DNA from: Flectonema sp. DT1601
Taxonomy: Eukaryota
DNA length: 64,000 nucleotides
Assembly (NCBI GenBank): GCA_964019425.1
Contig: OZ025784.1
Coordinates: forward strand, 1,054,001 to 1,118,000
Direction of reading: 5' to 3'
A program made the translations under genes and the position numbers. Shown one piece after another: positions 4,837 to 63,656 of this stretch (within the stretch, counting starts at the first letter, position 1; the number at the start of each line of letters is the position of its first letter). The notes under the pieces were generated by a model. The model was not told the DNA's origin. It was given only the letters and a program-made list of their open reading frames with translations, and did not search any database.

Positions 4837-6711
4837 TTACAATTCTGTTTCAGGAACAGATGCCCTTTCCACAATATGAAAAGGATAAAAGATATCATCA
4901 CTCACGATTGGTAAGAAAGGCGGTGACTCAATCGCATCTCCCTCAGTACCGATGTTCGTATCTCTGATGAAGGATAGCCTCCATTGAAGAAGGAATTTTT
5001 GATTATGAGTATCATCCAAAGTATTTGTGTAGGTCCACGTTGAATAAATAGGAGTTCGTTTAACCCCAGCAATAACATCTTGTGGATTGTAAACCTTCCC
5101 AGTCCTTCTAAGGACGACAGTGTACTCGTATCCGACTAAGAATTCGCAACTACTTCTCACGGTTCCCATGAATGACGTTCTGTCAGATTGTGGTGGACTC
5201 TGTTTTTTTATACGTTTTTTTTTTTTTTTTTTCAAAAAAACGAACAAAAAAAAAAAAAAAAAAAAAAAAAAAGCAACAATAACACAAACCACTACAGTAG
5301 TCCAATCTTCAGCAGTCGCTGGATTACTGTTAGCAAAAGCAGCAACAGAAACAGGAAGTGCTGCTGTCTGTGTTGGTAGAACTCTATTAAGGATACCTTC
5401 TCTACAGGATTCAGTAAATTGTTGTTTATTAAGAGTCACGAGACATCCACTTGATGAAATATCAAATAAGAACTTAACCTGTCGAGTACCAGCAGTAGCA
5501 CAGTCATGTCCAAAAGGAAGAGACAACAACCCAGTAGGTGTCCTAATTTGATCACCTTTTACATATCCTGGAGCACCACTGTATCCAGGTATAGGTAGAA
5601 GAGCTAAGTCGGTGTTCTTGTCTAACCAAGCAACACCATAGTTTTGAGAAAACGAGTTGGTATTTCGTTGGATAGTTGCTGTTCTGATAATGATGTTAAA
5701 GTTTAAGAATGAAATCCCTTGATTGACTGGGTACTCAGATTTGATTGAAATTTGAACCGACTGAACAGCGTTAATACAAGTACCTGTTGCTTCGTCAAAA
5801 GTAGTTTGAACAGCAGGATCGAGTGCTGCTCCACTACTATCAAAGATAGTTACTACCGCTGCTAATGATCTTGCTCCAAGGTTTGCTCCTGTTAATTCAG
5901 GACCCTCAGGAGGCGCGACTCCTAAACTTAACCATCTTGATATCGCTAACAGTGGAGATGTACATTGTTGTCGTAAATTAGTAATCAATCTCAGACAACT
6001 ATTACTCTCAAGGATTACATTCCTAAGGAAGTATGCTGGAGTTGCATCACTACAGATTCCATTCAATGGCCTCGGTAGTATTAAATACGGTAGTGCAGTT
6101 GGAGTTGGTGTTAATTTCACAGCTGTGACTCGATCACCAACTCGATACCACACTCCCGGAAGTACATTGCCGGAGTTCGGTTGATTTCCTGCTGATGGAG
6201 GAGATGTCCAATCACCGTTGAAAGTTTCTCTGTCGTAGTTCCAAACATTTCTAAAACGTGTCTCAGATTCTATAGCCGTAATACTTTCAACTGTCGATAA
6301 AGGATTTACTGTGAGTGGATTATTGTAAGAAGAGTCATCAAGTCCAAGGTTGTCGTGAACTATGCAGACGGTACTCTTTTCAGCTTCTGTGTTCCTTGTT
6401 GCGATCTGTCTTGAATAATATTCATCTTCTGTGTTAACAATTGCTTCAACACTTCCTGTCGGATTTATATAAAAAGGTTCGAGTAGCGACACTGGAGGTT
6501 CGGTACATTTGACACCTTTCTTGTCTCCGTATTTCTCCCTCCTACATTTCGTAAACGCTAAAAATATTGTCCTGGAATCGCAGTCCGTGTCGCAACAGCA
6601 ATTCGCATCGCAATATGCTTCTGTAAAGTCACAGATACAGTTTCCAGTTCTGTCAACTGTTTGAGTGTTCACAAGTAATAACAGTGACAGGGATGCTACC
6701 CAGATCTTCAT
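4837..6711 (-). CDS. Tectonic family ciliary transition-zone protein; probable 90-nt in-frame intron 5289-5200
   Basis: Signal peptide, CICDFTEAYCDANCCCDTDC motif, SGAPGYVKG, DDIFYPF. The poly-F/poly-K stretch corresponds to a GTTTGT...AAACAG intron. Confidence 0.85.
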   Translation of the reverse strand: MKIWVASLSLLLLVNTQTVDRTGNCICDFTEAYCDANCCCDTDCDSRTIFLAFTKCRREKYGDKKGVKCTEPPVSLLEPFYINPTGSVEAIVNTEDEYYSRQIATRNTEAEKSTVCIVHDNLGLDDSSYNNPLTVNPLSTVESITAIESETRFRNVWNYDRETFNGDWTSPPSAGNQPNSGNVLPGVWYRVGDRVTAVKLTPTPTALPYLILPRPLNGICSDATPAYFLRNVILESNSCLRLITNLRQQCTSPLLAISRWLSLGVAPPEGPELTGANLGARSLAAVVTIFDSSGAALDPAVQTTFDEATGTCINAVQSVQISIKSEYPVNQGISFLNFNIIIRTATIQRNTNSFSQNYGVAWLDKNTDLALLPIPGYSGAPGYVKGDQIRTPTGLLSLPFGHDCATAGTRQVKFLFDISSSGCLVTLNKQQFTESCREGILNRVLPTQTAALPVSVAAFANSNPATAEDWTTVVVCVIVAFFFFFFFFLFVFLKKKKKKRIKKQSPPQSDRTSFMGTVRSSCEFLVGYEYTVVLRRTGKVYNPQDVIAGVKRTPIYSTWTYTNTLDDTHNQKFLLQWRLSFIRDTNIGTEGDAIESPPFLPIVSDDIFYPFHIVERASVPETEL

Positions 6712-19524: not shown

Positions 19525-19680
19525 CCTGACTTCAATCTGATTCTCTCTTTTCCATCGTCGTGTTGACTAATCTGAAAAAAAAAATAAAAATAAAAATGAA
19601 ATTTAACGAAATCTAATAAATGCATATCTCCGTTGGCCATTAAAACAAAAGTAAAAAAAAAAAATTATATAATTGAGCCT

Positions 19681-19800
19681 TTGATCTTGTTCGGTTATTC
19701 CTGAGGGGGTGAAGTATAATAAGAGTTAAAGTATTCACTCGCACAGGTCTTGGCGCTGATCGTCAGAAATCAGAAAATCCTTTACGAACACACACAAAAT
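19681..19800. repeat. Family-A dispersed repeat, copy 1
   Basis: TTCCTG-GGGGTGAAGTA...CACTCGCACAGGTCTTGGCGCTG...CAGAAATCAGAAAA-CC-TTACGAACAC shared with copies at 30343, 45185 and 61605. Confidence 0.85.
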
Positions 19801-20375
19801 GTTTTCTTTTTATCAATTTCTGATAATTAGATTTTATTGTCTCCATTAGGGTCATCCTGACTTCAATCTGATTCTCTCTTTTCCATCATCGTATTGACTA
19901 ATCTGAAAAAATAAAAAAAAAAAAATGAAATTGTCAGAGTAAGAAACGTTACGAAATTTAATAAATGCATATCTCTGGGGTTGCCATTAAAACAAAAGTA
20001 AAAAAAAAATTAAAATGTAACAAAAAAGGTTCTTCAAAAAAAAGCAACCAGAAAAAAAAATAAAAACTCTCTCGTTTTTTTTTTTTTTTTTTTTTATGTT
20101 TAGCAGAGAGCGTCGATCAATAAAACATAAACAAGCAGCAGGTTTTCGGAAGCTAGTTGTCAACGGCGATCAAAAGAAAAACAACAGAACTGAGAGACTG
20201 ACAAACCACTGAATGGTTGAAAGGCAAATACCAAAACGAAATCTCAAAACAACCTAATACACTCTTGACACTTAAACAAATTGGGAAGAAATTATTAGTA
20301 GTAATTCTGAAAGAACCAGTCAAACAAAAAAAGAAAAAAAAAGAAAAAAAAAATCAACTTACCATCGACCAATTA

Positions 20376-22175
20376 TTATGAATTCTCATATTCGTCTCCC
20401 AAATGCGACATCTGTTGTAGCATTTCCGTTCCTGTAACGATTTGTGTTGTTCCATAGATAACTGATTTCCCTTTGTTTTCCTCGAGTTTTTCCCATTTCT
20501 TCAGATCTTCATATTCAACGTAGTTACCACCACCAGCAACGAATACCAGTGCTTGGTTAAATCGGAGTGGGGTTGGGTCAACTTGTTGGGCTGTTTTAGG
20601 ATCCCAGAAATCTAACTCATCAATAATTGGTTTTGATGAATCAGATCTTCGAAGGATAGCGTCAATCATCCTCGTGTGTGGTAACTGTCTCTGTCCACCA
20701 CTTGCGATGTTTTTAACAAAATCACCTATTTTCCTGGTACTGAAGAAACTCTTAGTAGTCTTTTCCTGATGTCTACCCTTCGCACTGAAATTAGCAGCCA
20801 TGATACGCTGGATACATTTGTATGCCAGGTGGTATTTGCCGTCGACGTCTTCTGGATCAGCGTCGGTTTTTCCGGCTTTTCGGGAAATGTAACCTTCGAG
20901 TTCCTTTGGTTTGTCGGTCTTTTCTCCATCCTCACCTGAGAGGATGCTGTAGACGAGTGCTAGTCTCATTCTATGGCTGAGGGGGATGTCATCGCTCTTA
21001 CAGAGATCTCTAATCTTATCATGGTCGTACTTCGATGCGAACATCATTTCTTCTGCGATTCCGTTGAACTCATCCAGTCGGTGTTTTTTAATTTCTCGAC
21101 TTAAGAGATCACACAGCTGCATGTGTGTTTCCAAACTCCTTTTTCTCTCTGTGTAGGATGAAGCATTTTCCAACGCCTTCATTAAGAATTGCGTTTGTTC
21201 GTTGAGATCAGATTGTTGCTTTTTACGTTTTGATTCTTTTTCTTCTTGATCGATTGCTTTTAGGTATTCTCCCACCTTCTCAATGACTTCACCGACTTCT
21301 TCTCCTGAGAGCTCTTGCCATACTAAATCTTTTTCGTCTACTTCGAATTCTTTTTTTCCTCTCACAACTTTATTTAATGACATCCCCAAAGTATCGTGTA
21401 GCAGTGCTCTGTAAGCAAAAGGCTGAACCAGACCTGTCGATAAATCACAAGTTCGATCTGATAGAAGTAATATGGGCCTGCTAACCTCTGCATGAGGTAA
21501 GTAGTGTTTCATATCTTTTATTTTTGATTTTAATTTTTCAGCAATGTCTATGCATGCTAGGTTTCCTCTTGACCAAGCGATGATCGGGATCATCTGTAAT
21601 GTCAGTAAGACGTGAACAATACCTTCAGCACAACTATCAAGATGTTCATCCAGCTGTTCTACAGTATTCTGACCTGAGTTTAACGTGAAGAAACTGTCAG
21701 GTATATTCAAAGTAAACATATCAGAAACTGGAGCGACAAAGTTTAAAAATTGATCTTTGACTTTAACATTTGTAATACCCCTACGAGGTTGTAATTCCAC
21801 AGCAAGTAATTCCAACAACTTTCTCGGCATTGGAGATGTCCAGTGAATGTTAAATGATTGATACATGTCAGAGACACAATCTTTCGCAATTCTCTTTACA
21901 GCTTCTTCTGTAGGTTGACAGATGTATATTGCAGGGGCGTCTGTGACTGCCTCTCTCGAAGCTGATAGTTTCATGAATAGCGTGACTCCCATTTTCCTCA
22001 AATCTCCTACTTTCAATATCGGAGCGATAAGTCCCATGGCAAAGTCATCATAAATAAGCACGGACCAATTAGGGGACATACTATTCCCCTCTGTGTATCC
22101 AAGTATCTCTTCTAAAGTAGACTTCGTCAACTGTCGCAGAGAAACCTGCCGACCTTCTCTGCTAGGCGTTGACAT
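20376..22175 (-). CDS. SLY1: Sec1/Munc18 family protein Sly1
   Basis: WSVLIYD, LKVGDLRKMGVTL, PAIY..PT, VFVAGGGNYVEY. Confidence 0.9.
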   Translation of the reverse strand: MSTPSREGRQVSLRQLTKSTLEEILGYTEGNSMSPNWSVLIYDDFAMGLIAPILKVGDLRKMGVTLFMKLSASREAVTDAPAIYICQPTEEAVKRIAKDCVSDMYQSFNIHWTSPMPRKLLELLAVELQPRRGITNVKVKDQFLNFVAPVSDMFTLNIPDSFFTLNSGQNTVEQLDEHLDSCAEGIVHVLLTLQMIPIIAWSRGNLACIDIAEKLKSKIKDMKHYLPHAEVSRPILLLSDRTCDLSTGLVQPFAYRALLHDTLGMSLNKVVRGKKEFEVDEKDLVWQELSGEEVGEVIEKVGEYLKAIDQEEKESKRKKQQSDLNEQTQFLMKALENASSYTERKRSLETHMQLCDLLSREIKKHRLDEFNGIAEEMMFASKYDHDKIRDLCKSDDIPLSHRMRLALVYSILSGEDGEKTDKPKELEGYISRKAGKTDADPEDVDGKYHLAYKCIQRIMAANFSAKGRHQEKTTKSFFSTRKIGDFVKNIASGGQRQLPHTRMIDAILRRSDSSKPIIDELDFWDPKTAQQVDPTPLRFNQALVFVAGGGNYVEYEDLKKWEKLEENKGKSVIYGTTQIVTGTEMLQQMSHLGDEYENS

Positions 22176-22666
22176 GGTTATTTTTTTTTTTTTTTTTTTT
22201 TTTGCTTAACGCTTGCTACTACTATCTAGAGGGGGTGAAAATATAACTCTCCATCATTACTCTTTTTAATGTCCACAGCTGTTTGTTACATCAATCAAGG
22301 TTGTGATCATCTATTCACACGCTGTTTTTAAATTATTGAAAATAATAAAATACTCTTTTCATCAACACATAACACAAGTTAAAAAGTTTTATGTACACTT
22401 ACCTGACTGCCAATATGAATAGGATATGGTAATGGCTAATTAATTGTGTGTCTCATCACATACACATACATACATAACACACAGCACACACATATACACA
22501 ACCAGCGGAATAATAGGAGAAATTTAATCACATGACTAGTGAGGCAGGCGCGCATAGAAACAAATAAAAAATAATAATAATAATAATAATAATACACCAA
22601 AGGACAAGACCGAGGTAAAAGAAAAAAAAGAAAATCAAACAATTCTAACGAGTAAATCTTCCAAAA

Positions 22667-36275: not shown

Positions 36276-36965
36276 TTAAACAGAGCTCAATTTATCCATT
36301 GAATCAAAGGGTTCCTTAATTATCAATTCCTGGATCTGTTCTTTTTCATCTTTACAATTGATGTCTTTAAGTTCGTGTGTTTCTCTGAACTTCAGAGTTG
36401 GTTCTTCTATTTTATATGATTGGTATCCGTACCAACCTTGGAACGTTGCAAGAAATGACACTATAAGCATACTCCCCGCGAATTTTGTTGTTTTTTCGTG
36501 GTCATCTAATTGATCGGAAAACCATGTTCTCATAGTAACGTAAAACGGCATTAGACACAAACCAACAAACAGTAAACCTTTCCAAAATATTAGCGGAGCA
36601 ATTCGAACTGATTTGGCACGTGCTTTTGAATAATTTAATTTCACTTCTGTTTTTGGAAGGTCGGTTACTTCTCTATGATTTAGGTAAACCTGAATAGCAG
36701 CGAGTGGAATGACTGTTGCGATCACAACCACGTTGGCAAACAGTAAAGTAAATCCCAGCTGTAAGAATATTAATGGAGATAAAGCGGTGAGCAGCCCGAG
36801 AACCATCCCGATTATTATATTTCGACGATGGGTCTGAAACACCATCTTCTTTCTCTTTTCAGATGATATTATTCTCCCACATCCGAATCCATGCGGGTAG
36901 TACGCAGTAGTCCCATCATCCAAATCAACGAATGCTGACTCAGTCGCTACATTCAGGAAAGACAT
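36276..36965 (-). CDS. 4-TM membrane protein, paralog 2
   Basis: ATG at 36965 (MSFLNVATESAFVD) aligns to the paralogs. Confidence 0.85.
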   Translation of the reverse strand: MSFLNVATESAFVDLDDGTTAYYPHGFGCGRIISSEKRKKMVFQTHRRNIIIGMVLGLLTALSPLIFLQLGFTLLFANVVVIATVIPLAAIQVYLNHREVTDLPKTEVKLNYSKARAKSVRIAPLIFWKGLLFVGLCLMPFYVTMRTWFSDQLDDHEKTTKFAGSMLIVSFLATFQGWYGYQSYKIEEPTLKFRETHELKDINCKDEKEQIQELIIKEPFDSMDKLSSV

Positions 36966-37119
36966 AATTTGTCTTTTTTTTTTTTTTTTTTTTCTGTTGG
37001 AAAAAAATTTAAAAAACAAAATACAATTCACTAGCAGGGGATTTGTCTCGTTCGGATGTCAAACAAACAAAAATAAATAAGTTAGTTGGTATTTAATATA
37101 AATCGGATTTATCAAAAAA

Positions 37120-37817: not shown

Positions 37818-38507
37818 TTATGCTCTACTTGAGATTTCTGAATCCAACCTGTCCGATGGATCAGATTGTTCTTTAATAATTAATGCGTGTTTTTCATCTT
37901 CGCAATTGATGTCTTTAAGTTCGTGCGTTTCTCTGAACTTCAGAGTTGGTTCTTCTATTTTGTACAATTGGTATCCGTACCAACCCCAAAGTATGAAAAA
38001 AAGACATATCAAGAATAAGAGTATTGTGTTTATAACTGTTCTTTGATACGGTTTCAACAAATGTGAAAACCAAACTCTAATCGTTAGGGTCAACATCGTC
38101 AGACACACACCAAAAACAATATCAGCTTTCCAAAATATTAGTGGAAGGCACCGAACTGATTTCGCACGTGAGTTTGTGATATTCATTTTTATATCTGTTT
38201 TAGGAAGATCAGCTACTACTCTGTGATTAAAATATATCTGAAAACCCACTGCTGGAATACAAGCAACAGCTGTAATGCCGACCACGAATATCAGTTGGAG
38301 ACTCAGCAGTGCAACTACTATTCCAAAAACAGTTGCAGCTAACAATTCGGCGAGAATAATTCTACGGTGAACTTCGAACACTTCCATCTTTCTCCTTTCA
38401 CACGTAATTATTCTTCCTGAAACTACTCTTCCACAGGGATAGAATATTGTGCTTCCGTCTTCCTGATCGGTGAATGAAGCTTCTGCTTGTTTGTCTAAGA
38501 ATCTCAT
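37818..38507 (-). CDS. 4-TM membrane protein, paralog 3
   Basis: Aligns to the paralogs; C-terminal YKIEEPTLKFRETHELKDINC is identical to paralog 2. Confidence 0.85.
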   Translation of the reverse strand: MRFLDKQAEASFTDQEDGSTIFYPCGRVVSGRIITCERRKMEVFEVHRRIILAELLAATVFGIVVALLSLQLIFVVGITAVACIPAVGFQIYFNHRVVADLPKTDIKMNITNSRAKSVRCLPLIFWKADIVFGVCLTMLTLTIRVWFSHLLKPYQRTVINTILLFLICLFFILWGWYGYQLYKIEEPTLKFRETHELKDINCEDEKHALIIKEQSDPSDRLDSEISSRA

Positions 38508-38756
38508 TTTATATGTTCCGTGTATACCACACTGTTGGTCAGAAAGATTAATTTAGAAAAGCTTAACTGATAGTGATTAGAGTCAAGCAAGAACGATAGC
38601 AACAACTGCAATTATTGTTTTGTTTTGTTTTGTTTGTTTTTTCTCGATAACTAAATACCTGAGGAATGTTATAAATAAGTGAAACAGCAACTACGCAACT
38701 TTTCTTAATAAACTAACTCGATTTCCCGTTTTTTCGATATCATTAACCAGATGTAG

Positions 38757-44787: not shown

Positions 44788-45184
44788 CTATTTGTTAGTA
44801 GTTACCAGGAGATGTGTAATAAAATATATTTTTTATGTTCGTAGAGCATGTCTGTAGTCGAATATGTTGTGTCGCCTGTTATGGAATTGAAGTAATCATC
44901 CTTTAGTAACTTTCCTTTGTTCAATATTACTAAGTCGTTGTGTGATAGTATATCGGAGTAGAGTACGAGGGAATAGTCATTCTTATACCACACAGCCGTA
45001 AGACACCCTCCAACAAGTGAATGTTCACGCATTCCCTTGACGGCTTTGAGGCGAGCAATTACGGTTGAACATGTCACAGTAGTTTAAAATAAAATGAAAA
45101 TGCGATGAACTTTATTAGTATACTTGTCCAACCGAGGGGGATGAGATGACGGGGAACTACTTTGAAAGAATAAGAAGAATGAAC

Positions 45185-45330
45185 TTTGATCTCGTTCGAT
45201 AATTCCTGCGAGGGGTGAAGTACAATGGGGGGTAAAGAATCACCTACACAGGACTTGGCGCTGCTATTGTCAGAAATCAGAAAACCCATTACGAACATAA
45301 AAACGATTTTTTGCTTCTTCACAGTCGCTG
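45185..45330. repeat. Family-A dispersed repeat, copy 3
   Basis: Colinear with the 19681 and 61605 copies. Confidence 0.85.
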
Positions 45331-45543
45331 AGAAGTTGGTTTGATTTGATTTCAGCGACGCAACCAAAAGGAAAAGAGAGAATAACAACATTGAGAATTC
45401 TGCGGATAAAAAGAAATTCTCTCTTATTTTTATTTCACTTTTTTTTTTTTTTTTTTTTTCACAATACCCGTAAGAAGACACAACTTCGTCGGCCTGGAGC
45501 TACCGTGAAGCTCGACTAAAGTCGTACCGAATAACTCAAAACT

Positions 45544-46599
45544 TTACTCTTGTTTAACAACCCAGTCACATATTCCTCCGGATCTAAGTGGTACAACTAC
45601 CGTTGGGTTTGTTTCTTTAGTTCCAAAAGGGAATGACTCGGCTACCTGGTGGGGCTCTTTAACTAATGTTACTTTCTCACTATTTTGAGGAATGCCATAA
45701 ATATTCGATCCATTAATTGATGTAAACTTCTCGAGGTGCTCTAATGCGCCAGCAGATTCAAACGCCTCCGCGTAGAATGACAACGCTTCATGAGCAGTAA
45801 AGATACCAGCACATCCACAAGCAGATTCCTTATCTCCAATAGCGTGAGGTGCTGAGTCAGTACCAGCGAAAAACTTTGTATTTTCAGGATCAGTTGCCGC
45901 TGCGAGAAGAGCTTTTCTGTCCTCTTCCCTTTTAAGAATTGGAAGGCAGTACATGTGCGGTCTAATCCCACCTTTAAAAATGTCATTTCTGTTGTGGATT
46001 AAGTGATGAGCGGTGATGGTGGCGCCAACGTTTGGTCCCTGTTTTTTTACGAAATCAACGGCAGCGCGGGTGGTGATGTGCTCACAGACAACCTTGAGAT
46101 GTGGTACTTTCTGAATGATTAACTTTCCCATAATCTCATCATAGAATGCCTTCTCACGATCAAAGATGTCTTCACAAGTAGTTGATTCACCGTGTACACA
46201 GAGAACCATACCAAGATCTGCCATCTTTCTTAAAGCAGGAAGACACGATTCATAGTTTGTGATTCCGTTTTCTGAATTAGTTGTTGCTCCAGCAGGGTAC
46301 AGTTTTACTGCCTTAACAAATCCAGTGTTCCACGCTTCTTCAATCTCATCAGGAGTAGTAGTGTCAGTTAGATAAAGAGTCATTATGAAATCAATACGAG
46401 CACCACCAGCGGCTTCAATTAATCGCTGACGGTACTCAGTCGCTTTTGCTGCGTTTGTAACGAAATTGTTCTTCAGATTTGGCATCGCAAGAACTCTTCT
46501 AAACTGCTTTGCTGCGAGTGGAACGGTTGTTTCAAGTACTTCACCGTCTCTGAAGTGATGGTGGAAGTCATCAGCTGCTGTGATTGTTAACGTCGTCAT
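45544..46599 (-). CDS. pyrC: Dihydroorotase, stand-alone homodimeric (E. coli PyrC) type
   Basis: DDFHHHFRDG, MPN, KLYPAGATTNS, EHITT, CLPILK, GTDSAPH; likely ATG at 46599. Confidence 0.93.
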   Translation of the reverse strand: MTTLTITAADDFHHHFRDGEVLETTVPLAAKQFRRVLAMPNLKNNFVTNAAKATEYRQRLIEAAGGARIDFIMTLYLTDTTTPDEIEEAWNTGFVKAVKLYPAGATTNSENGITNYESCLPALRKMADLGMVLCVHGESTTCEDIFDREKAFYDEIMGKLIIQKVPHLKVVCEHITTRAAVDFVKKQGPNVGATITAHHLIHNRNDIFKGGIRPHMYCLPILKREEDRKALLAAATDPENTKFFAGTDSAPHAIGDKESACGCAGIFTAHEALSFYAEAFESAGALEHLEKFTSINGSNIYGIPQNSEKVTLVKEPHQVAESFPFGTKETNPTVVVPLRSGGICDWVVKQE

Positions 46600-46681
46600 G
46601 ATAGTGTTTGTGTTGTCTGGAAAATGTAAAACAAAAATAAAGACAACAATTAAAACATAATTCACCAAATGAAAAACAGCC

Positions 46682-47821
46682 TCAGTTCTCCTCTTCAAAT
46701 ATCGACATCTGCAGATTTTGAACTTCTGAGTTTTTCAACAAGTCTCCCACAACAACTTCCTTTATAGTTTTCAATAACACCTCATCAACTACCTTCATCT
46801 TTGACACAGCTTTTAAGAATAATATCACAACCTCAGTATGGTTGTGTAGTTTATATTTGTCACGATAAAGTTCAAATATAGCGATTGTTGATTTATCAGC
46901 TGCCGGACTATTTATAATATTTAATGAGAGTAAAGCTTTGCTAATCGACTCACCGGATAATAGATTGTGGTGATCAGCTTGTTTTAAGTACATCATTATT
47001 GTAATGTGATTGGTTGTGCAACTTATCCAAATGTCGAAGCAGGAGGGAGGGAATTGAATTCCCATGGATTCTGCGTGAAGTAACCACTGTCTACGATCAG
47101 AACTTTGAGTGATGTGCCATCCAACTATGTAGTAGTACCTCCATCCTAATGATAGTTTCGGATACGTAGATGGTATTGTTTTGTGTTGTAGTTGCAACGC
47201 TTTGAATCCCTTTTCAAATGCGACAACAGAGTGATAAGCCTGCAACACATCAACCGTCACATCAATATCATTAGCATACTTTGATAACAACAATTCAACG
47301 TGGATTAACTTATCTGTCACTGTATGTGTCTTTGCAATGCTAGTAATTGCCTGAGCAAGGACGTAGTCGTCTATTGCGGGTACAGATGAGTCACATTGCA
47401 TTTGATCAAGTATTTCCATTATCCTCACAATAGCTGTCTTCCCTTCAATACTCGACGCTATGCGTAATAACTGTACGTAGCTTCCTTTATCCACGTTGTG
47501 ATAATGAGAAGCGAATTTTATAATTTGTGTGCATTCGTGGTATGCTTTTGGTATTCGTTTTTGAGATAATTTTTTATATCTCTTAACCACTTTTGAAATT
47601 ATCGATATGTATCTTGCTACTTCAGAATTGTTTAGGGTAACACCTTTTCCAACGTCTCCTTCCCATGTAATTTGCTCAAAAACTTTTAATGGCGAGGGTT
47701 CGGTTCCCTCTCGCAGCCACCTTGCTGCTATAAATTCTGTACCTGTACTATGTCTAAAGCTTAAATTAGTAAAAGTACGAATCCAACTGACGTACCCTCG
47801 CACTTCGCTGTACCTGGGCAT
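46682..47821 (-). CDS. Hypothetical alpha-helical protein (start uncertain)
   Basis: Long ORF on the coding strand; the first ~66 codons of the track ORF look like UTR. Confidence 0.65.
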   Translation of the reverse strand: MPRYSEVRGYVSWIRTFTNLSFRHSTGTEFIAARWLREGTEPSPLKVFEQITWEGDVGKGVTLNNSEVARYISIISKVVKRYKKLSQKRIPKAYHECTQIIKFASHYHNVDKGSYVQLLRIASSIEGKTAIVRIMEILDQMQCDSSVPAIDDYVLAQAITSIAKTHTVTDKLIHVELLLSKYANDIDVTVDVLQAYHSVVAFEKGFKALQLQHKTIPSTYPKLSLGWRYYYIVGWHITQSSDRRQWLLHAESMGIQFPPSCFDIWISCTTNHITIMMYLKQADHHNLLSGESISKALLSLNIINSPAADKSTIAIFELYRDKYKLHNHTEVVILFLKAVSKMKVVDEVLLKTIKEVVVGDLLKNSEVQNLQMSIFEEEN

Positions 47822-54923: not shown

Positions 54924-56453
54924 CTAAATATGTTGAGTAGACACCTCATCAGCGGAAGGGTAGGACTGCGTGTATCCGATCGGCGGTGCGACAGGTTGTG
55001 GTTGCATTTGAACTGGTCTGTAAATAACAACGAGATTCTTTGTTTTTCCTGGAGATGGATCTTCAACGCCAAGAGATTCCTCTGATACGAGAAGTCCGTT
55101 TATTCCACCATCAACAACTGCTGCTCTTGCAGCTTCTGTAGCCAATACCCACAATGTTCCCTCTCCATAGACAGCTCTCACCACTTTAGTGATAGTTCCT
55201 TGGGGAATATAAACCATTTCACCATTAGGAGTTGATACAAAAGCTCTATTTGGTCTATCAGTTGATGGGTTTGAGTATCTAGCTAAGTCTTCAGGTGACA
55301 TGTCAGATGTTCTTCTTGACATTGATTCGTCATCCATCATTGAGAATTCTGATAAATCATCAACAACAGAATTATTATCCCTCCGACTAGATCTTGGATT
55401 ATATGGATCATGTCTATATGAACCAGTTGATCTCTCAGTCACTGGATCTTCATCACCATCTTCATCCTCAATAACAATCGGACCAACTGATAGTCGCTGT
55501 GATGACAACGACATCTGAGGCATTGATTGAGGTGTTCCCTGTAACCCTCCAATTAAATTTTGCTGAGGAGTACCTTGCTGTCCCATTGCTGGCATATAAC
55601 TAACCTCTAGTTTCTTTGGTGTTCCCAATGAAAAATCTTGTACACCTAAAGCCATAGCGCTAACTTGAATAACAAAACCCCCAGCGTTCAGAGGAATACT
55701 CCTAACACAGTCTACTACTCTGTAACAGTCTCCATAAGTAGCTGACACTAGAGACGCGATGGTGCCTTGCCTAACTGACATGAATTCTCCGTCAGAAGCT
55801 GAGATCGTAATTAAATTCGGATTTCTCACTGGAAGTGGTGACCCTACACTACTCTGTGGAGACGTATTAGTGACATCAACTTTCGGATGCGGTTGTTGTG
55901 GCTGCACTCTCGGCTCTGGTTTATTCAACACTCCATTTGCTGGAAAATTATGCTCAACTCCTTGTGTATCAGCAAGCCTCATTAGTTCAATAATTATCTG
56001 TTGACTTCCTTCCCAAGGAATCGTAGCTGCAGTTTTTAACTCCGGGAAGTCAAGTCTTGGACCTCTGGTGTGAATTGATAGTTTGATGCGAGTAATTGCT
56101 GGTCGAGGATCACCGTTAACTGAATAACAAAGACCAGTGCTATCTTGTATTGCCATAAATCGGATGACCGATCCTTTTACAGGATCAGTGAAAGAGACGT
56201 CGCCTGGTAGTTGTTCAGGTTCAGGTGGTTTTTCGGGTTGTGTTTCTTTCTCTGGTGATTCGTGTACTTCACCTCCTTCTTCTTCTACCATGTCATCCCA
56301 TTGAGTTTCCCACATTGCTATCAATACGACGTCAACTTCAACACCAGCTCTCTTCGCAAGTGTTTCTAATACATCTGCTCTCTTTGTTGAGCCTTTTATT
56401 TTATCAAAAGCTAACCCGCTTTTCTTTAGCAGGTCCTCAAGTGTTACGTCCAT
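54924..56453 (-). CDS. Protein with two SUEL/Gal-lectin-like or DUF3395-like domains
   Basis: Repeated VSATYGD...PKKLEVSY and VRAVYGE...DPSPGKTKNLVVIY units. Confidence 0.7.
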   Translation of the reverse strand: MDVTLEDLLKKSGLAFDKIKGSTKRADVLETLAKRAGVEVDVVLIAMWETQWDDMVEEEGGEVHESPEKETQPEKPPEPEQLPGDVSFTDPVKGSVIRFMAIQDSTGLCYSVNGDPRPAITRIKLSIHTRGPRLDFPELKTAATIPWEGSQQIIIELMRLADTQGVEHNFPANGVLNKPEPRVQPQQPHPKVDVTNTSPQSSVGSPLPVRNPNLITISASDGEFMSVRQGTIASLVSATYGDCYRVVDCVRSIPLNAGGFVIQVSAMALGVQDFSLGTPKKLEVSYMPAMGQQGTPQQNLIGGLQGTPQSMPQMSLSSQRLSVGPIVIEDEDGDEDPVTERSTGSYRHDPYNPRSSRRDNNSVVDDLSEFSMMDDESMSRRTSDMSPEDLARYSNPSTDRPNRAFVSTPNGEMVYIPQGTITKVVRAVYGEGTLWVLATEAARAAVVDGGINGLLVSEESLGVEDPSPGKTKNLVVIYRPVQMQPQPVAPPIGYTQSYPSADEVSTQHI

Positions 56454-58763
56454 CTTTGTGTTGTTAACCACTCACTTGAATATAAAGAAGGTTTTTGTAT
56501 TTATTATTATTTTCTTGTTTTTTTTTTTTTTCAATTTACCAACTTTCTCTCACATAAAATTTGTACTGTTATGAGAATATAACGTTTTTACCTTTTTTTT
56601 TTTTGAATGAAATTTAATTATTATTTTTTTAATTGATTACATAACCCAAGTAGCTAAAAAGAATAAATGGTGTGCATGGTAAATTGATACTGCATTATTA
56701 AGCCTCAAAAGGAATAACAATCCCCTCGACTGTCAGCGGCAGCGTAGTAAATGACTGCAAATAAATAAATAATACCACTGGAGGCCACATGAACATAGTT
56801 GAGCGTCAGTTTTGTATGTTACTGTTAACAGTTTTTTATAAAACTTCGGGAAATAATTCCTCTTTTTTTGTGTTGCTTCACATAATTACAAAATCAATAT
56901 CAAATTACGGGAAACAAGACACTCCATTTGTTTGAATTGAGTTGCAATTTTTTTTTTTTTTTTTTTTTTTGATAATGGAAAAACAATCACATTATATTGG
57001 GTTACACATCATACACATCTTCAGTCGCAAAGTCAAATTATTTTCAGTCTCCTTTTGAGGATGTTATTTAAGAAGAGACGGGTCTCGCAAAATATCTCTT
57101 TCCTCTTCTCTTAGTTTGGTATAAAAAAACTAAGCATTCAATGTCTCGTACCGATGTTACAGCAACGAGACGTCTGATATGAGTGAAGACAACCTTCTAT
57201 TTCCAAGGGACAAACTAAATTACAAAGAAAACTCGACTTATGACGAGAATAGGGAAAGAAAAAAAAGATGACTACCATCAGCGTCACTGGTGACGGCGAG
57301 AAGACAAGCGGGTTTTTTTTTTTTATTAAAAAACTTTTATATAAACAGATGATAGCAGGCAAACTAATCAGACTCACGCCTACACTTTGCGACTAACTCA
57401 GGTGCTGATACTCAGGAAAGAACATGACGACCATCAACGCCACTAGTGACGGCGAGAAACGACGAGAAGGACCACATGAAACAGGGTGTTTATGTGTACA
57501 ATCGTCAATGTATCATTTTTTGGTTCGCAGTCACCGACGCAACAAAACATTTACGAACCGCTGAGAATCCTACGGGTAGGAGACTACAGGTAGAACTATC
57601 TCAACGTAAGGAAAAAAAAGAAAAAAGAAAAACAACTAATGCATAACATCAACTTTCTATTAAAACTCAAGCGACAGGCCAGACGCAATCACCCTGACTT
57701 CACACGTTGAAAGGAACGAAAATAGGCAAGGAGGTCGAAGACAAAACAAAAAAAGTACACCGAGTACCCTGCAGATAAAATTAGCGAAATCACTTTTTTT
57801 TTTTTTTCGTTAAAGATAACGTGAATGAATTTTTTTTTTTTTTTTTTTCCCCGCAAAAAAAAGAACAATAAAAAAAAAAAATATAAAAGACGACTTAGGA
57901 ACACCGATATACTTCCATCGTCTGTTCCAGAGGGTGGATCAAACAACCTTCTTCGCTCGAGGCTCTGAATAGATGCCCTTGCTCAAAAAACCAGAGCATA
58001 CAACAGCTGGTATTAAGAAAAACTAAAAATAAATAAATAATATTAAGTGACTTTAATGTGAATAAACACATCTACCTGCTTGTAGTCAAAGTTCCAACTA
58101 ATTATATATATACAAAAAAAAAAACAGGTACGCACGATAATAAAGAGAGCGAAAAAAAAAAAAAAAACATATTGCTTTTTTCCTTGATTGGTTATGCCTG
58201 ATTTAAACTGGAAAACTTCAAAAAAAAAAATATCACTAGATAAACAACGCCACCCATGAGTATCTTCCGAGTACCAGTTTTTTTTTACTGGCTTGATGTC
58301 ACTAGTCTCGGTTTTTCTTCAAAAATGTAAGTAGATGAATAAAAAGGAAAGAGGGTATAGAAATCATCTACTATAAGAAAATCCTTCTCTATATAAACAT
58401 TTTAATTTTTAATTCGCATCTCTTCTCTGAATTCAATTTATTTTTTTTATGTTTTTCTTATTTAAGTATCATAGTCTACAAGGAGAACACGTGAAACTAA
58501 AAAAAATATCTATACTACTCTGGAAATAACGACTGTAATACGATTACGCACTCAGCAATTGATGAGATAACGATGACAATGGACACACGAAAATGCGCGT
58601 AAACACTTTGAGAAAAAGAGGAGGAAGAGGAGGGATAGATGTATGTTCGATTTTGTAAAAATTACAACAGTGTTGAATCATAAAAACATAAAGATAATTT
58701 AACATCAGTTTTAGATACAGTGACTAAGGGTGATGCGCAACTTAGCATAATAAAGTAACTATT

Positions 58764-58818
58764 AGGTTTCGAGAGTAATCCATATACCTCTTACCTCTAT
58801 TCTCTCTCATCAGTATGG
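58764..58818 (-). ncRNA. Hammerhead ribozyme candidate, non-circularly permuted (family C)
   Basis: CCAUA-CUGAUGA-GAGAG-12nt-AGGU-A-UAUGG-4nt-CUCUC-GAA-ACCU: full core with stems I (5 bp), II (5 bp) and III (4 bp). Confidence 0.8.
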
Positions 58819-59218
58819 TGTAGAAGTAGAAGTAAGTCAGTCAAATGTTGAGACTAGTTTGCGGTACTGAAATGTAGTTACTTTAAGTTTCATGTTCATA
58901 ATAAAAAACATATTATTTACTGTTACTAGTTCGTAGCTCACTACAGGAGAGGATTATTGCCATAACAGTGAGGGGACAAACTAATCCCTTTTTTTTTTTT
59001 TTTTCTACTATTTTTCATCGAAAACGGCGATAAGTCCGATTTTAAGTAGAAAAAAAAAAAAAAAAAAACAGCAATAACAAAAAAAAAGAAATAAAATTAA
59101 AATAAATACCATTGTTAGATTTGCGGAGGAAGCAATTTTTTTTTCTCTCTTTTTTTGTTTTTCATAGTTTTTTTAAAAATGAAAATGAGAACCTTTTTTG
59201 TCAGTCATCTAATAAGTA

Positions 59219-60339: not shown

Positions 60340-61203
60340 CTATATTCTCTGAACAGATAAATTTCGAGATGAATGCGTTAGGATTTGTTGAACAGGTGAT
60401 TTTGGTGGGAATTGTTTAGATGAAGGAGCTGTTGGTGTGCCCGTGTGCGTATAGGAGAGTGTTTGTCTCATATAGCGTATCTGTTCTTCCATATCTAATT
60501 TCAGTTCACGAAAACGATGTCGAACACGTTGTGAATCATCCTCGATCTGACGTTCCGCCATAGAAGTTGAAACAGATCTCCGACGTTGTTTCACATTTTG
60601 AACTTGAACAGTACCTCTAAGACTCGGTGTCACACTAATCTCTCTAGCAGGAGGATTAAAAACCGGATTTAAGTGCCAAGGAGGAACACCAAACGTGTTT
60701 GATGTACCCTTCTGGATCTGAGGAGGAGGAGTCAATATAACAGGAAATGGTATAAGAGGTGGAGTCTTTTTGATCGTCTCTTCACCATTACTGTTACAGT
60801 TTGCATTGCTGTTCCTGAAGCTCATGTTCTCCAACTCAATTTCATCTGACTTTGCGCTTACTGTTTTTACTTCATATTGGGTACTGATTTCAGTGACATC
60901 GTCTTCCCAGCTTAGCTTTTCATGTAACAAGGTTAATCTATTCCCTTGAGCAGACTGCAATCTACCTAATAATACAAAGGTAACGATCCCAGCTATAAAC
61001 AACACGGCACCCGCAGACAAAAATACGATTAACCACTCCAGTGTGTTAGGTTGTTGTTGTACGCTGCTCAGGACATTCTCTTTTTTTATGCGCGCTAGAA
61101 CCTCCGAATCTAATGCAGGGGGGGAAATTGATACTAAAATTAAATGGAAAGCAACTTCAAACTGGCAAAAACGAGAATAGGGTTCGGCCAAACCTGGTTG
61201 CAA
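60340..61203 (-). CDS. Single-TM hypothetical protein with Pro-rich tail (5' exon structure unresolved)
   Basis: Long ORF with TM WLIVFLSAGAVLFIAGIVTFVLL; no ATG near its 5' end. Confidence 0.6.
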   Translation of the reverse strand: MQPGLAEPYSRFCQFEVAFHLILVSISPPALDSEVLARIKKENVLSSVQQQPNTLEWLIVFLSAGAVLFIAGIVTFVLLGRLQSAQGNRLTLLHEKLSWEDDVTEISTQYEVKTVSAKSDEIELENMSFRNSNANCNSNGEETIKKTPPLIPFPVILTPPPQIQKGTSNTFGVPPWHLNPVFNPPAREISVTPSLRGTVQVQNVKQRRRSVSTSMAERQIEDDSQRVRHRFRELKLDMEEQIRYMRQTLSYTHTGTPTAPSSKQFPPKSPVQQILTHSSRNLSVQRI

Positions 61204-61604
61204 TATAAGAAATCAACTGTTGGTATCGATAAAAAATCCCATATATGTGCTGTCGAATATGGGGATTCGGGGGCCACGTACAGGGGGGAAATTAATACTA
61301 AAATTATGAAACTTGAAACAAGTAAGAAAAGTAATTTCGGGGGGTGAGAAAAAGATGAAGCAAGCAAAATAAAATAAAATACGCATGTTGTCAACGTCGT
61401 ACCGTACTGATCGCACATAATATTTTAAAACCGAGTAGGGGGGGAACAACTGTAACACAAATCGATGATTAATTTCGAGATCGACTCCGTTGAAGTGTCT
61501 CTCTAGTTGATCGTATATTTTTCCCATGTTATGTATCCTGTGTTAGTGACACGAATACACTTCCCAGCAGCCGACCAAGTATAATTGGAGTTAACTTCTG
61601 TTTC

Positions 61605-61730
61605 GGGAATTCCTGTGAAGGGGTGAAGTACAATGGGGTTAACGAATCACTTGCATAGGGTTCGGTACTAATGGTCAAAAATCAGAAAACCCTCTTTACG
61701 AACACAACACACACACACAGGTTTTTGCTT
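61605..61730. repeat. Family-A dispersed repeat, copy 4
   Basis: Colinear with the 19681 and 45185 copies. Confidence 0.85.
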
Positions 61731-62749
61731 TTTTTGTAAGTAGGACTCGACTTCAAGAGCAAAGGAAAAGGGAGAAAGAAAAAAAACACTTGAGGGGCAA
61801 AAAAAAAAAAAAAACGGAATTGTGAATTGTGATGTTAGGTTAATTATATTTTTCTTCCATCCAAAAGAAAGTGTTTGGATGCAAAAAAAAATTAAACATC
61901 ACTGTTGTCAATTTACAAACAATTTTTTTTAAAAAAAAAAAAAAACTCGCAAGTAGACACTTGGAAAATAAAAAAAAAAAACCAAAAATAAACAAAACAA
62001 ACCCAAAAACGATAAACGTTTGAAACCAACAGCGTCAAGCCAGATCTCGGGCGACAAGCTGGAATGGTGCGGAGACAAAAGAATACGAGCTTATAGATAA
62101 CGGGTCTAGTACATTACGTATGTAGACCAAATCTTGTCTAGGATTATTATGTAGCTAAGCTGTCGTTGGAATGGAAAGATCAGATACATAATCTGGGAAA
62201 CAACAGCCAGACAATTAACAACACTAAAGCAACCTCTTCTTCTAAGCTATTCCAACGTAAAAAAAAAGACGTCAAAAAATTAACTGTCTTTAATTCAGAC
62301 GAATACAGAAAACTAAAATAGATAACTAACTTCAGCAACACACATGACCCACTTATGTTACCAAAACTTGTTAAGTAAAGCAACCTGATGGTTGTTTTTT
62401 TCTTTCTTTTTTTTTTTTTTTTTTTTTTTTGCTCTTTTTTTTTTTTTTTTTAATTAGAAACCACATTACACAACCGACACGAGCTACAGAGTGAATAGCT
62501 TCTCCAATATATCAAGCACACATTCGATCGCGTGCTGGGGTAATTTTGATCCGATACGAAAAGATTTATCTGGGAAGAATACAGGGCTGAGGTAGGGGAA
62601 AGAACGAGCAAAAAAAAAAAAAAAAAAAAAAAAATGGGGGAAAAGGAAAAACGGGGGGGAGGTTAATTCTTTGATTTTTGCAAAATAAATTACAACCGTA
62701 TTGTACCACATTAACATAAACGATAAATTTAGCAATCAACTGTGAACTA

Positions 62750-62935
62750 CTGTGACTTAACTTACTCTTTTAAAGTAACTATTTAGGTTTTCGAGAGAAT
62801 CAATCTACCTCTTTACCTCTATTCTCTCATCATCAGTAATAGTGTGAGTCTGAATAACCTTCAGTTAAGGCAAGTCTGGAGTGTAATTACTTTTCAAAAA
62901 ATATGATCCTAAGAAAAATCTTATTATTGTCATCT
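62750..62935 (-). repeat. Family-C repeat, decayed copy of the permuted hammerhead element
   Basis: Colinear with about 58720-58925; single-base insertions next to the core and loss of stem I. Confidence 0.8.
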
Positions 62936-63066
62936 TAATTACAGTTGAATACAGTCACAGCTCGTGGTAACAAGTTAGTATTAATAATTATCGTAGTAAC
63001 AAGTTAGTATTAATAATTATCAGTCAATCAAAAAAAAGGCAAAAGTTCGTAGGACAACAAACAAGT

Positions 63067-63140
63067 TGGTTTCGGGCTAAGATGAAAAACAATCTTTCTT
63101 CGGACCATTCCCCTTATCCAGCCCTCTTCAGCGAAGAAAG
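63067..63140 (-). ncRNA. Hammerhead ribozyme candidate, non-circularly permuted (family B)
   Basis: CUUUCUUCG-CUGAAGA-GGGCU-12nt-UGGU-C-CGAAGAAAG-15nt-AGCCC-GAA-ACCA: full core with stems I (9 bp), II (5-7 bp) and III (4 bp). Confidence 0.85.
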
Positions 63141-63656
63141 CAAGGGGGACACTGCGGTGTCAGGCCTGTCCTACAACAACAAGTTAGTTAGTTAGTTATC
63201 AAGTCCATCAGACCACCGAGTATCGGTTAGGTAGACACTCAAAGAGTACCGGGTGGCTCTTCTGAACAAGAAACCTTTAACTACTTCAGAGCTAATTATA
63301 AATAACGGAACATTATTCAATGCTCAGTGAAAAGAAGATGAAGATTGATATCATTTTCTTAAGAAAAATGAATACCGTAAATAAACAAACACCATTAAAA
63401 AAAAACTAATCAAAACAAAACAAAAAACAAGAATTTTTTTTTTTTTTTTTTTTCGATGATAAAAAAAGACAGTTAATCTCAGCACAAAATACACAGTTTC
63501 AGATGTCAAAGGAACCGTGGCACATCCATTGCACATTCATCAAAAGGAAAGAAAATTGATAATCCACAAATGCCCTCGTCATAGCAGAGACAGGCTCTAT
63601 TTATGAATAAAATTTATAAATAAAATAATTTTGAAACAGCCGTGAAGCAGCTTCAA

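Follow-up and report, generated by a model that had tools for sequence, protein, structure and literature searches.

A hammerhead core, C1, lies on the minus strand at 58818-58764 of the 64-kb window, the window being the whole stretch of DNA that was analysed. It is a new and statistically well-founded example of the known but very rare ribozyme type CSG and not a new ribozyme class. C1 is very probably a selected hammerhead fold. Judged from its sequence it would quite probably cut in vitro, and there are reasonable grounds to regard it as carried by a retro-mobile repeat. The preferred reading, which we consider fairly probable, is that of a cis-acting type-CSG hammerhead on a small, likely retro-mobile non-coding repeat of a diplonemid genome, predicted to cut between 58785 and 58784.

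The core was read from the sequence and located with a descriptor. Block C, CUGAUGA (C3-A9), occupies 58807-58813 and is flanked by the 5' strand of stem I (58814-58818), which forms five Watson-Crick pairs with 58784-58780, and by the 5' strand of stem II (58802-58806), which forms five Watson-Crick pairs with 58775-58771. Three further stem II pairs, 58801-58799 with 58777-58779, are possible by eye beyond a bulged A58776. Block S (58780-58789) holds a stem III strand (58789-58786), A17 at 58785 and the 3' strand of stem I (58784-58780), while block G (58764-58775) holds the 3' strand of stem II, GAAA at 58770-58767 and the other stem III strand (58767-58764), and stem III forms by four Watson-Crick pairs between 58789-58786 and 58767-58764. 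The triplet at the predicted cut is GUA. CUGANGA, GAAA, UH, A15.1-U16.1 and G10.1-C11.1, which characterise the type-CSG core, are all present, and G10.1 and U16.1 stand 20 nt apart, as they also do in B1, the intact hammerhead of family B. Each of the segments that the initial annotation had assigned to 58764-58818 was found in place on the minus strand, and the perfect pairing claimed for stems I-III was confirmed with 5, 5 and 4 pairs, all Watson-Crick. The 55-nt unit proposed there is too short, since P4, P5 and P0 lie partly outside it; with these three helices included, the type-CSG unit at C1 spans about 135 nt.

A descriptor scan for all six hammerhead block orders on both strands gave two matches in the 64-kb window (58813 and 63131), both in CSG order and both on the minus strand, and the other five orders gave 0 matches on either strand. 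No match to the circularly permuted orders CGS, GSC and SCG was found within 120 nt, and C1 lacks the circularly permuted order with a three-way junction that marks the canonical types I, II and III. Among 150 dinucleotide shuffles of the window, scanned for the CSG order alone, any CSG match occurred in one with Watson-Crick pairing and in two when GU pairs were allowed, and a match as good as C1 in none (0/150), by thresholds for "as good" that were chosen after the motif was seen. Relaxing the descriptor to one core mismatch plus one mismatch per stem added a single match, at 5761 on the plus strand, which was discarded since its core is broken. An Rfam scan of the window returned 10 matches and no hammerhead family at E up to 1, as expected for a block order outside the coverage of the Rfam models. 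Scans for relatives in five collections gave 2, 0 and 0 loci in viral contigs, 4 in metagenome contigs and 1 in prokaryote genomes, and by eye stem I of the type-CSG fold is formed in 0 of these 7 loci. Several stem bases were fixed in the scan patterns, so that other CSG families would escape them.

The fourth helix, P4, was absent from the search descriptor, yet it was found where published type-CSG sequences have theirs, connecting the stem I flank with the stem II flank over 8-10 bp. The pairing test places its 3' strand at 58790-58799 and its 5' strand within 58821-58836, where a 6-nt duplication gives rise to two registers, 58836-58827 with 58799-58790 (10 bp) or 58828-58821 with 58799-58792 (8 bp). 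Pairing with the linker equal to that of P4 was seen for 10 of 5000 random 25-mers of the window and for 20 of 5000 shuffles. Directly 5' of P4 is the hairpin P5 (58838-58856, minus strand; 5 bp, one of them U-G), which is present in the MFE and the centroid structure and sits at the matching position in family B. The unit is closed by P0, in which 58875-58885 and 58751-58761 form 11 Watson-Crick pairs, a run length equalled by 6 of 2000 random 70-mers with Watson-Crick pairs and by 32 of 2000 with GU. The six helices of C1 (P0, P5, P4, I, II and III) are mutually compatible. A nested fold of 141 nt around C1 includes P0, P5, P4 and stem III (z = -2.82, 2/200 shuffles); the plus strand of the same segment is about as stable (z = -2.44), and folding energy therefore does not tell the two strands apart. 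For the 63 nt surrounding the annotated core this method, which is unable to form pseudoknots, gave no hammerhead fold and a stability no better than that of shuffles (z = -0.32, 74/200). Within the fold of 141 nt, P4 extends into two bases of stem II owing to the 6-nt duplication, and such an intrusion could slow the predicted cutting by C1. Only 0-2 nt link the distal ends of P4 and stem III.

B1 is an intact type-CSG hammerhead of family B on the minus strand at 63047-63176, with its core at 63131-63125, a stem I of 9 bp and a predicted GUC cut between 63103 and 63102. Six helices, P0, P5, P4, I, II and III, are common to B1 and C1 in identical order, which upholds the earlier proposal that both families have the topology of a non-circularly permuted hammerhead. 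Among the controls for B1, 95 of 5000 reached the pairing of its P4 and 47 of 2000 that of its P0. The families were correctly described as unrelated in sequence, as they give no BLAST match and an equally high alignment score is reached by 65 to 280 of 300 shuffles. Stems I and II had been said to differ completely; most of their pairs do, but one of five pairs in stem I and two of five in stem II are identical. Between C1 and B1, 8 of the 14 core pairs are changed on both sides (stem I 4/5, stem II 3/5, stem III 1/4) and 0 are broken, in a comparison of these two sequences alone, which are too few for statistics. Since the two families resist sequence alignment, this is an agreement of structure and not covariation among proven homologues. 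The supposed independence of the two families is not shown by these data, the common six-helix order and the 20-nt spacing fitting common descent as well as convergence.

Type CSG was defined by Eckert et al. 2023 (PMC10085705) by the order CUGAUGA / cut site / GAAA, and the block order of C1 was thus already published and its fold is not new. The available part of that paper describes two unique CSG sequences (five in all) from soil metagenome DNA with no known organism; CSG-1 and CSG-2 both cut at the predicted site, slowly, at 0.004 and 0.026 per min. In their fourth helix the bases before stem I pair with the bases after stem II, and the short linker between P4 and stem III was flagged as not obviously fitting the crystal structure. 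Biological relevance was graded by the authors as weaker for CSG than for type SGC because CSG comprised two similar sequences without a host. The sequences described here resemble CSG-1 and CSG-2 in the C-S-G order, the intact core, the P4 that links the stem I and stem II flanks, the DNA source, a 2-nt link from P4 to stem III (in the proximal register) and a link of about 4 nt from stem I to stem II. The spacing from G10.1 to U16.1, counted by eye in Fig. S10, is 19 nt in CSG-1 against 20 in C1 and B1. The stem sequences differ, and the cut triplet is GUC in the published sequences and in B1 but GUA in C1. In contrast to the published CSG sequences, those found here stand on a eukaryotic contig, in two families and in dispersed copies. 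P0 and P5 fall beyond the 66-column published alignment and are hence not comparable. Type SGC (HRIMA-1 and variants) shares with C1 the non-circular permutation, the pseudoknotted core and an additional stem I/II helix; it differs in its order and in its 583 sequences, which are nearly all known from metatranscriptomes only and linked to hairpin-ribozyme RNAs. The extra helix of type SGC was required (PMC10085705), so a 55-nt RNA without the fourth helix would miss a part required in this related type. PMC10085705 alone was found to treat type-CSG or type-SGC hammerheads, in a search with subscription journals mostly outside it, and as far as the searches reach C1 and B1 are the first placement of type CSG in a eukaryotic host in print.

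C1 is part of a family C repeat unit of about 300 bp (58616-58917, minus strand) whose extent is that of its alignment with C2, at 67% identity over 316 columns. C2 is a decayed second copy at 62836 (62641-62928, minus strand) with a 1-nt insertion after the core. Stem I of C2 is broken and the 5' strand of its P4 is gone; P0 is retained with one G-U and is by itself at chance level (251/2000). Both C1 and C2 terminate at a pyrimidine tract. For family B, sequence alignment revealed on the minus strand a decayed copy, B2 (37272-37072), in which no P0 was found, a 5' fragment, B3 (32484-32445), and a tail fragment (34335-34271), and a further fragment of the recurring tail lies at 31661-31600. 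B1, B2 and B3 have a common 5' boundary, at the start of P0 or within a few bases of it. Some of the dispersed copies may stem from local tandem duplication of three paralogous genes (33159-33890, 36276-37058 and 37818-38552, minus strand). These three tandem genes have no Pfam match, and from their hydrophobic stretches they apparently encode membrane proteins. B1 and the decayed C2 are 295 nt apart; a composite B-plus-C element suggested by this spacing was dropped as the region upstream of C1 yielded no part of B.

The dispersed non-coding repeat with a hammerhead that characterises retrozyme-like elements is thus present in the window. Non-LTR retrozymes and Penelope-like elements, as described in the available parts of 10.64898/2026.07.22.740005 and PMC8557442, likewise include small non-coding intergenic hammerhead repeats, presumed to depend on a reverse transcriptase supplied in trans, but their hammerheads are canonical, circularly permuted and often in tandem, unlike C1. 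No tandem array was found at the C1 site, and the window as analysed showed neither a tandem array nor a pLTR nor a Penelope protein. No reverse transcriptase or endonuclease family was detected in the 44 frames of the window that were scanned (11 + 33). The Pr77 HDV-like ribozyme of the trypanosomatid INGI/L1Tc elements (PMC12278014, available part) is likewise a self-cleaving RNA of euglenozoan retroelements with short non-coding versions; it belongs to another ribozyme class, HDV-like as opposed to hammerhead. The words "hammerhead", "ribozyme", "Penelope" and "GIY-YIG" are absent from seven supplement files on Diplonema papillatum. Titles and the beginnings of abstracts gave no diplonemid hammerhead and no ribozyme of a Diplonema retrotransposon, with subscription journals mostly outside this search.

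The window lies on a contig of 1.37 Mb and is likely diplonemid nuclear DNA, as suggested by a Sec1-family protein at 20376-22205 with 68% identity to a Flectonema neradi protein, the next named matches being from Lacrimia, Namystynia and a Rhynchopus cluster. C1 lies in an intergenic region flanked by the frames 60340-61212 and 54924-56471. All 19 frames of at least 250 aa are on the minus strand, as are all the ribozyme copies. In D. papillatum the genes form one-way arrays that are thought to be co-transcribed (PMC10161547, available part), and rRNA fragments are scattered widely in its genome according to the same source. Isolated fragments of SSU and LSU rRNA were also seen here, at 39007-38758, 59278-59219 and 26324-25964, all on the minus strand and thus on the coding strand, and two of the three cover one and the same SSU segment. 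A link between the ribozyme copies and the rRNA fragments was considered and rejected since such fragments are widely scattered in D. papillatum. The LSU rRNA fragment begins a few bases ahead of what we take to be the R2 target site.

A public sequence search found one run, a marine metatranscriptome present as contigs (X1), with 0.10 of the words. The X1 contig is 367 nt long with a depth of 6.4 and aligns to 58685-58908. Relative to C1 it has three located substitutions and three indels, all outside 58764-58818, two of its five substitutions being without a located position. By eye, the six located differences break no proposed pair; the contig lacks 6 nt at the duplication, which leaves a single P4 of 10 bp, two bases away from stem I, and has a 10-nt insertion that would extend P5 to 6 Watson-Crick pairs. 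The probability of six events all missing a core of 55 out of 224 nt is about 0.18 and is not significant by itself. The contig runs across the predicted cut site and gives no strand, ends or proof of transcription; it may be DNA or antisense, and it may represent another locus, strain or species. Loops upstream of both C1 and B1 share a short motif, which was set aside because two of its bases are changed in the X1 contig.

In the fold that we infer, P4 and stem III would each be an ordinary hairpin within the junction that P0 closes, and their loops would kiss via stems I and II so that the standard core is formed. In known hammerheads, attack by a 2'-OH leaves a 2',3'-cyclic phosphate and a 5'-OH, and by analogy C1 would follow the same chemistry. 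By the topology alone, stems I-III together with P0, 25 bp in all, span the cut from the 5' to the 3' product. The ends left by the cut would therefore remain clamped, and re-joining would be favoured by this clamping. Only one stem spans the cut in the circular permutations of the hammerhead, as against all three core stems in type CSG. Where a unit is cut at two ribozymes, the retained products would favour formation of a circle. The presumed role of the cut, modelled on that proposed for retrozymes, would be to set the ends of the repeat RNA for copying by a reverse transcriptase encoded elsewhere. A wider proposal, which we put forward tentatively and hold as doubtful, is that diplonemids have an undescribed class of retro-mobile RNAs with the CSG hammerhead as its signature ribozyme, and that the block order would be selected as a clamped cut-and-rejoin device, in which four helices (I, II, III and P0) would clamp the ends and the element RNA would be circularised out of the polycistronic transcript of the host.

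Four other explanations were weighed against the cis-acting ribozyme of a mobile repeat. Action solely as a dimer or in trans, through a kissing contact between a P4 hairpin and a stem III hairpin that belong to two different RNAs, is unlikely. It would account for a linker of merely 0-2 nt between P4 and stem III, flagged as structurally awkward in PMC10085705, whose methods contain no concentration series in the part available, and a layout of two hairpins permits swapping. The constant spacing of 19-20 nt, on the other hand, looks like the length for an intramolecular fold-back, the intact copies in the window are single and not in tandem, and P0 closes one unit on itself. The question of a dimer is independent of the origin of the element. 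An explanation of another kind, distinctly improbable in our judgement, is that the host keeps the ribozyme as a processing signal that cuts polycistronic pre-mRNA between genes or alters the fate of a neighbouring transcript. This would suit the shared minus strand of the 19 long frames and all the copies, the putatively co-transcribed one-way arrays of diplonemids (PMC10161547) and the pyrimidine tract that ends both C1 and C2. Against a maintained signal, three of the five copies with 5' parts (C2, B2 and B3) are decayed or truncated and most intergenic regions are without a match, and the rRNA fragments share the strand too, so the co-orientation is not specific.

There is only a small chance that the copies derive from a viroid-like circular RNA, or from another RNA replicon of the host, pieces of which were fortuitously copied into DNA and integrated. 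Ribozymes of the related type SGC belong to RNAs known from metatranscriptomes only (PMC10085705), the single outside copy found is from an RNA library (X1), and RNA-like fragments, among them the pieces of rRNA, do enter the genome; but the published CSG sequences in the available part of that paper are known in DNA only, the opposite strand is without a ribozyme match, and the X1 contig has no joint or circular signature. That C1 is a chance match, or a dead relic unable to fold, is the most improbable of all. The linker is purine-rich and of low complexity, the duplication gives a competing fold, and no true relatives were among the seven loci of the five collection scans, whereas 0 of 150 shuffles match as well, three extra helices are common to the sequence-unrelated family B, and every core base is intact.

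For the type-CSG hammerhead as such, two sequence-unrelated families with one six-helix plan on one eukaryotic contig give far better support for the fold, and the type is now placed in a group that allows tests of cleavage, of RNA ends and of the parent element. Diplonemids include cultured members. The longer unit with P0 and P5 offers better constructs for kinetics and structure, including how the link between P4 and stem III is accommodated.

Some further repeats and elements were observed in passing. A second dispersed non-coding repeat of about 110-190 bp with 76-83% identity occurs at 19679-19838, 45184-45346 and 61602-61711, and the pairs 19492-19662/19823-20009 and 16801-16846/61232-61281 belong to the same group. 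The long intergenic region downstream of C1 contains a 42-nt direct repeat with 86% identity (57261-57302 and 57417-57458). The four metagenome loci (L003 at 2001-2048, L004, L005 and L006) were ruled out as hammerhead relatives as stem I of the CSG fold is absent from them; they share one element, about 500-670 bp or longer, which occurs in differing contexts and is presumably similar to a group II intron. A 396-aa frame at 45544-46734 on the minus strand has no Pfam match at E 0.001 and resembles what we assume to be a dihydroorotase.
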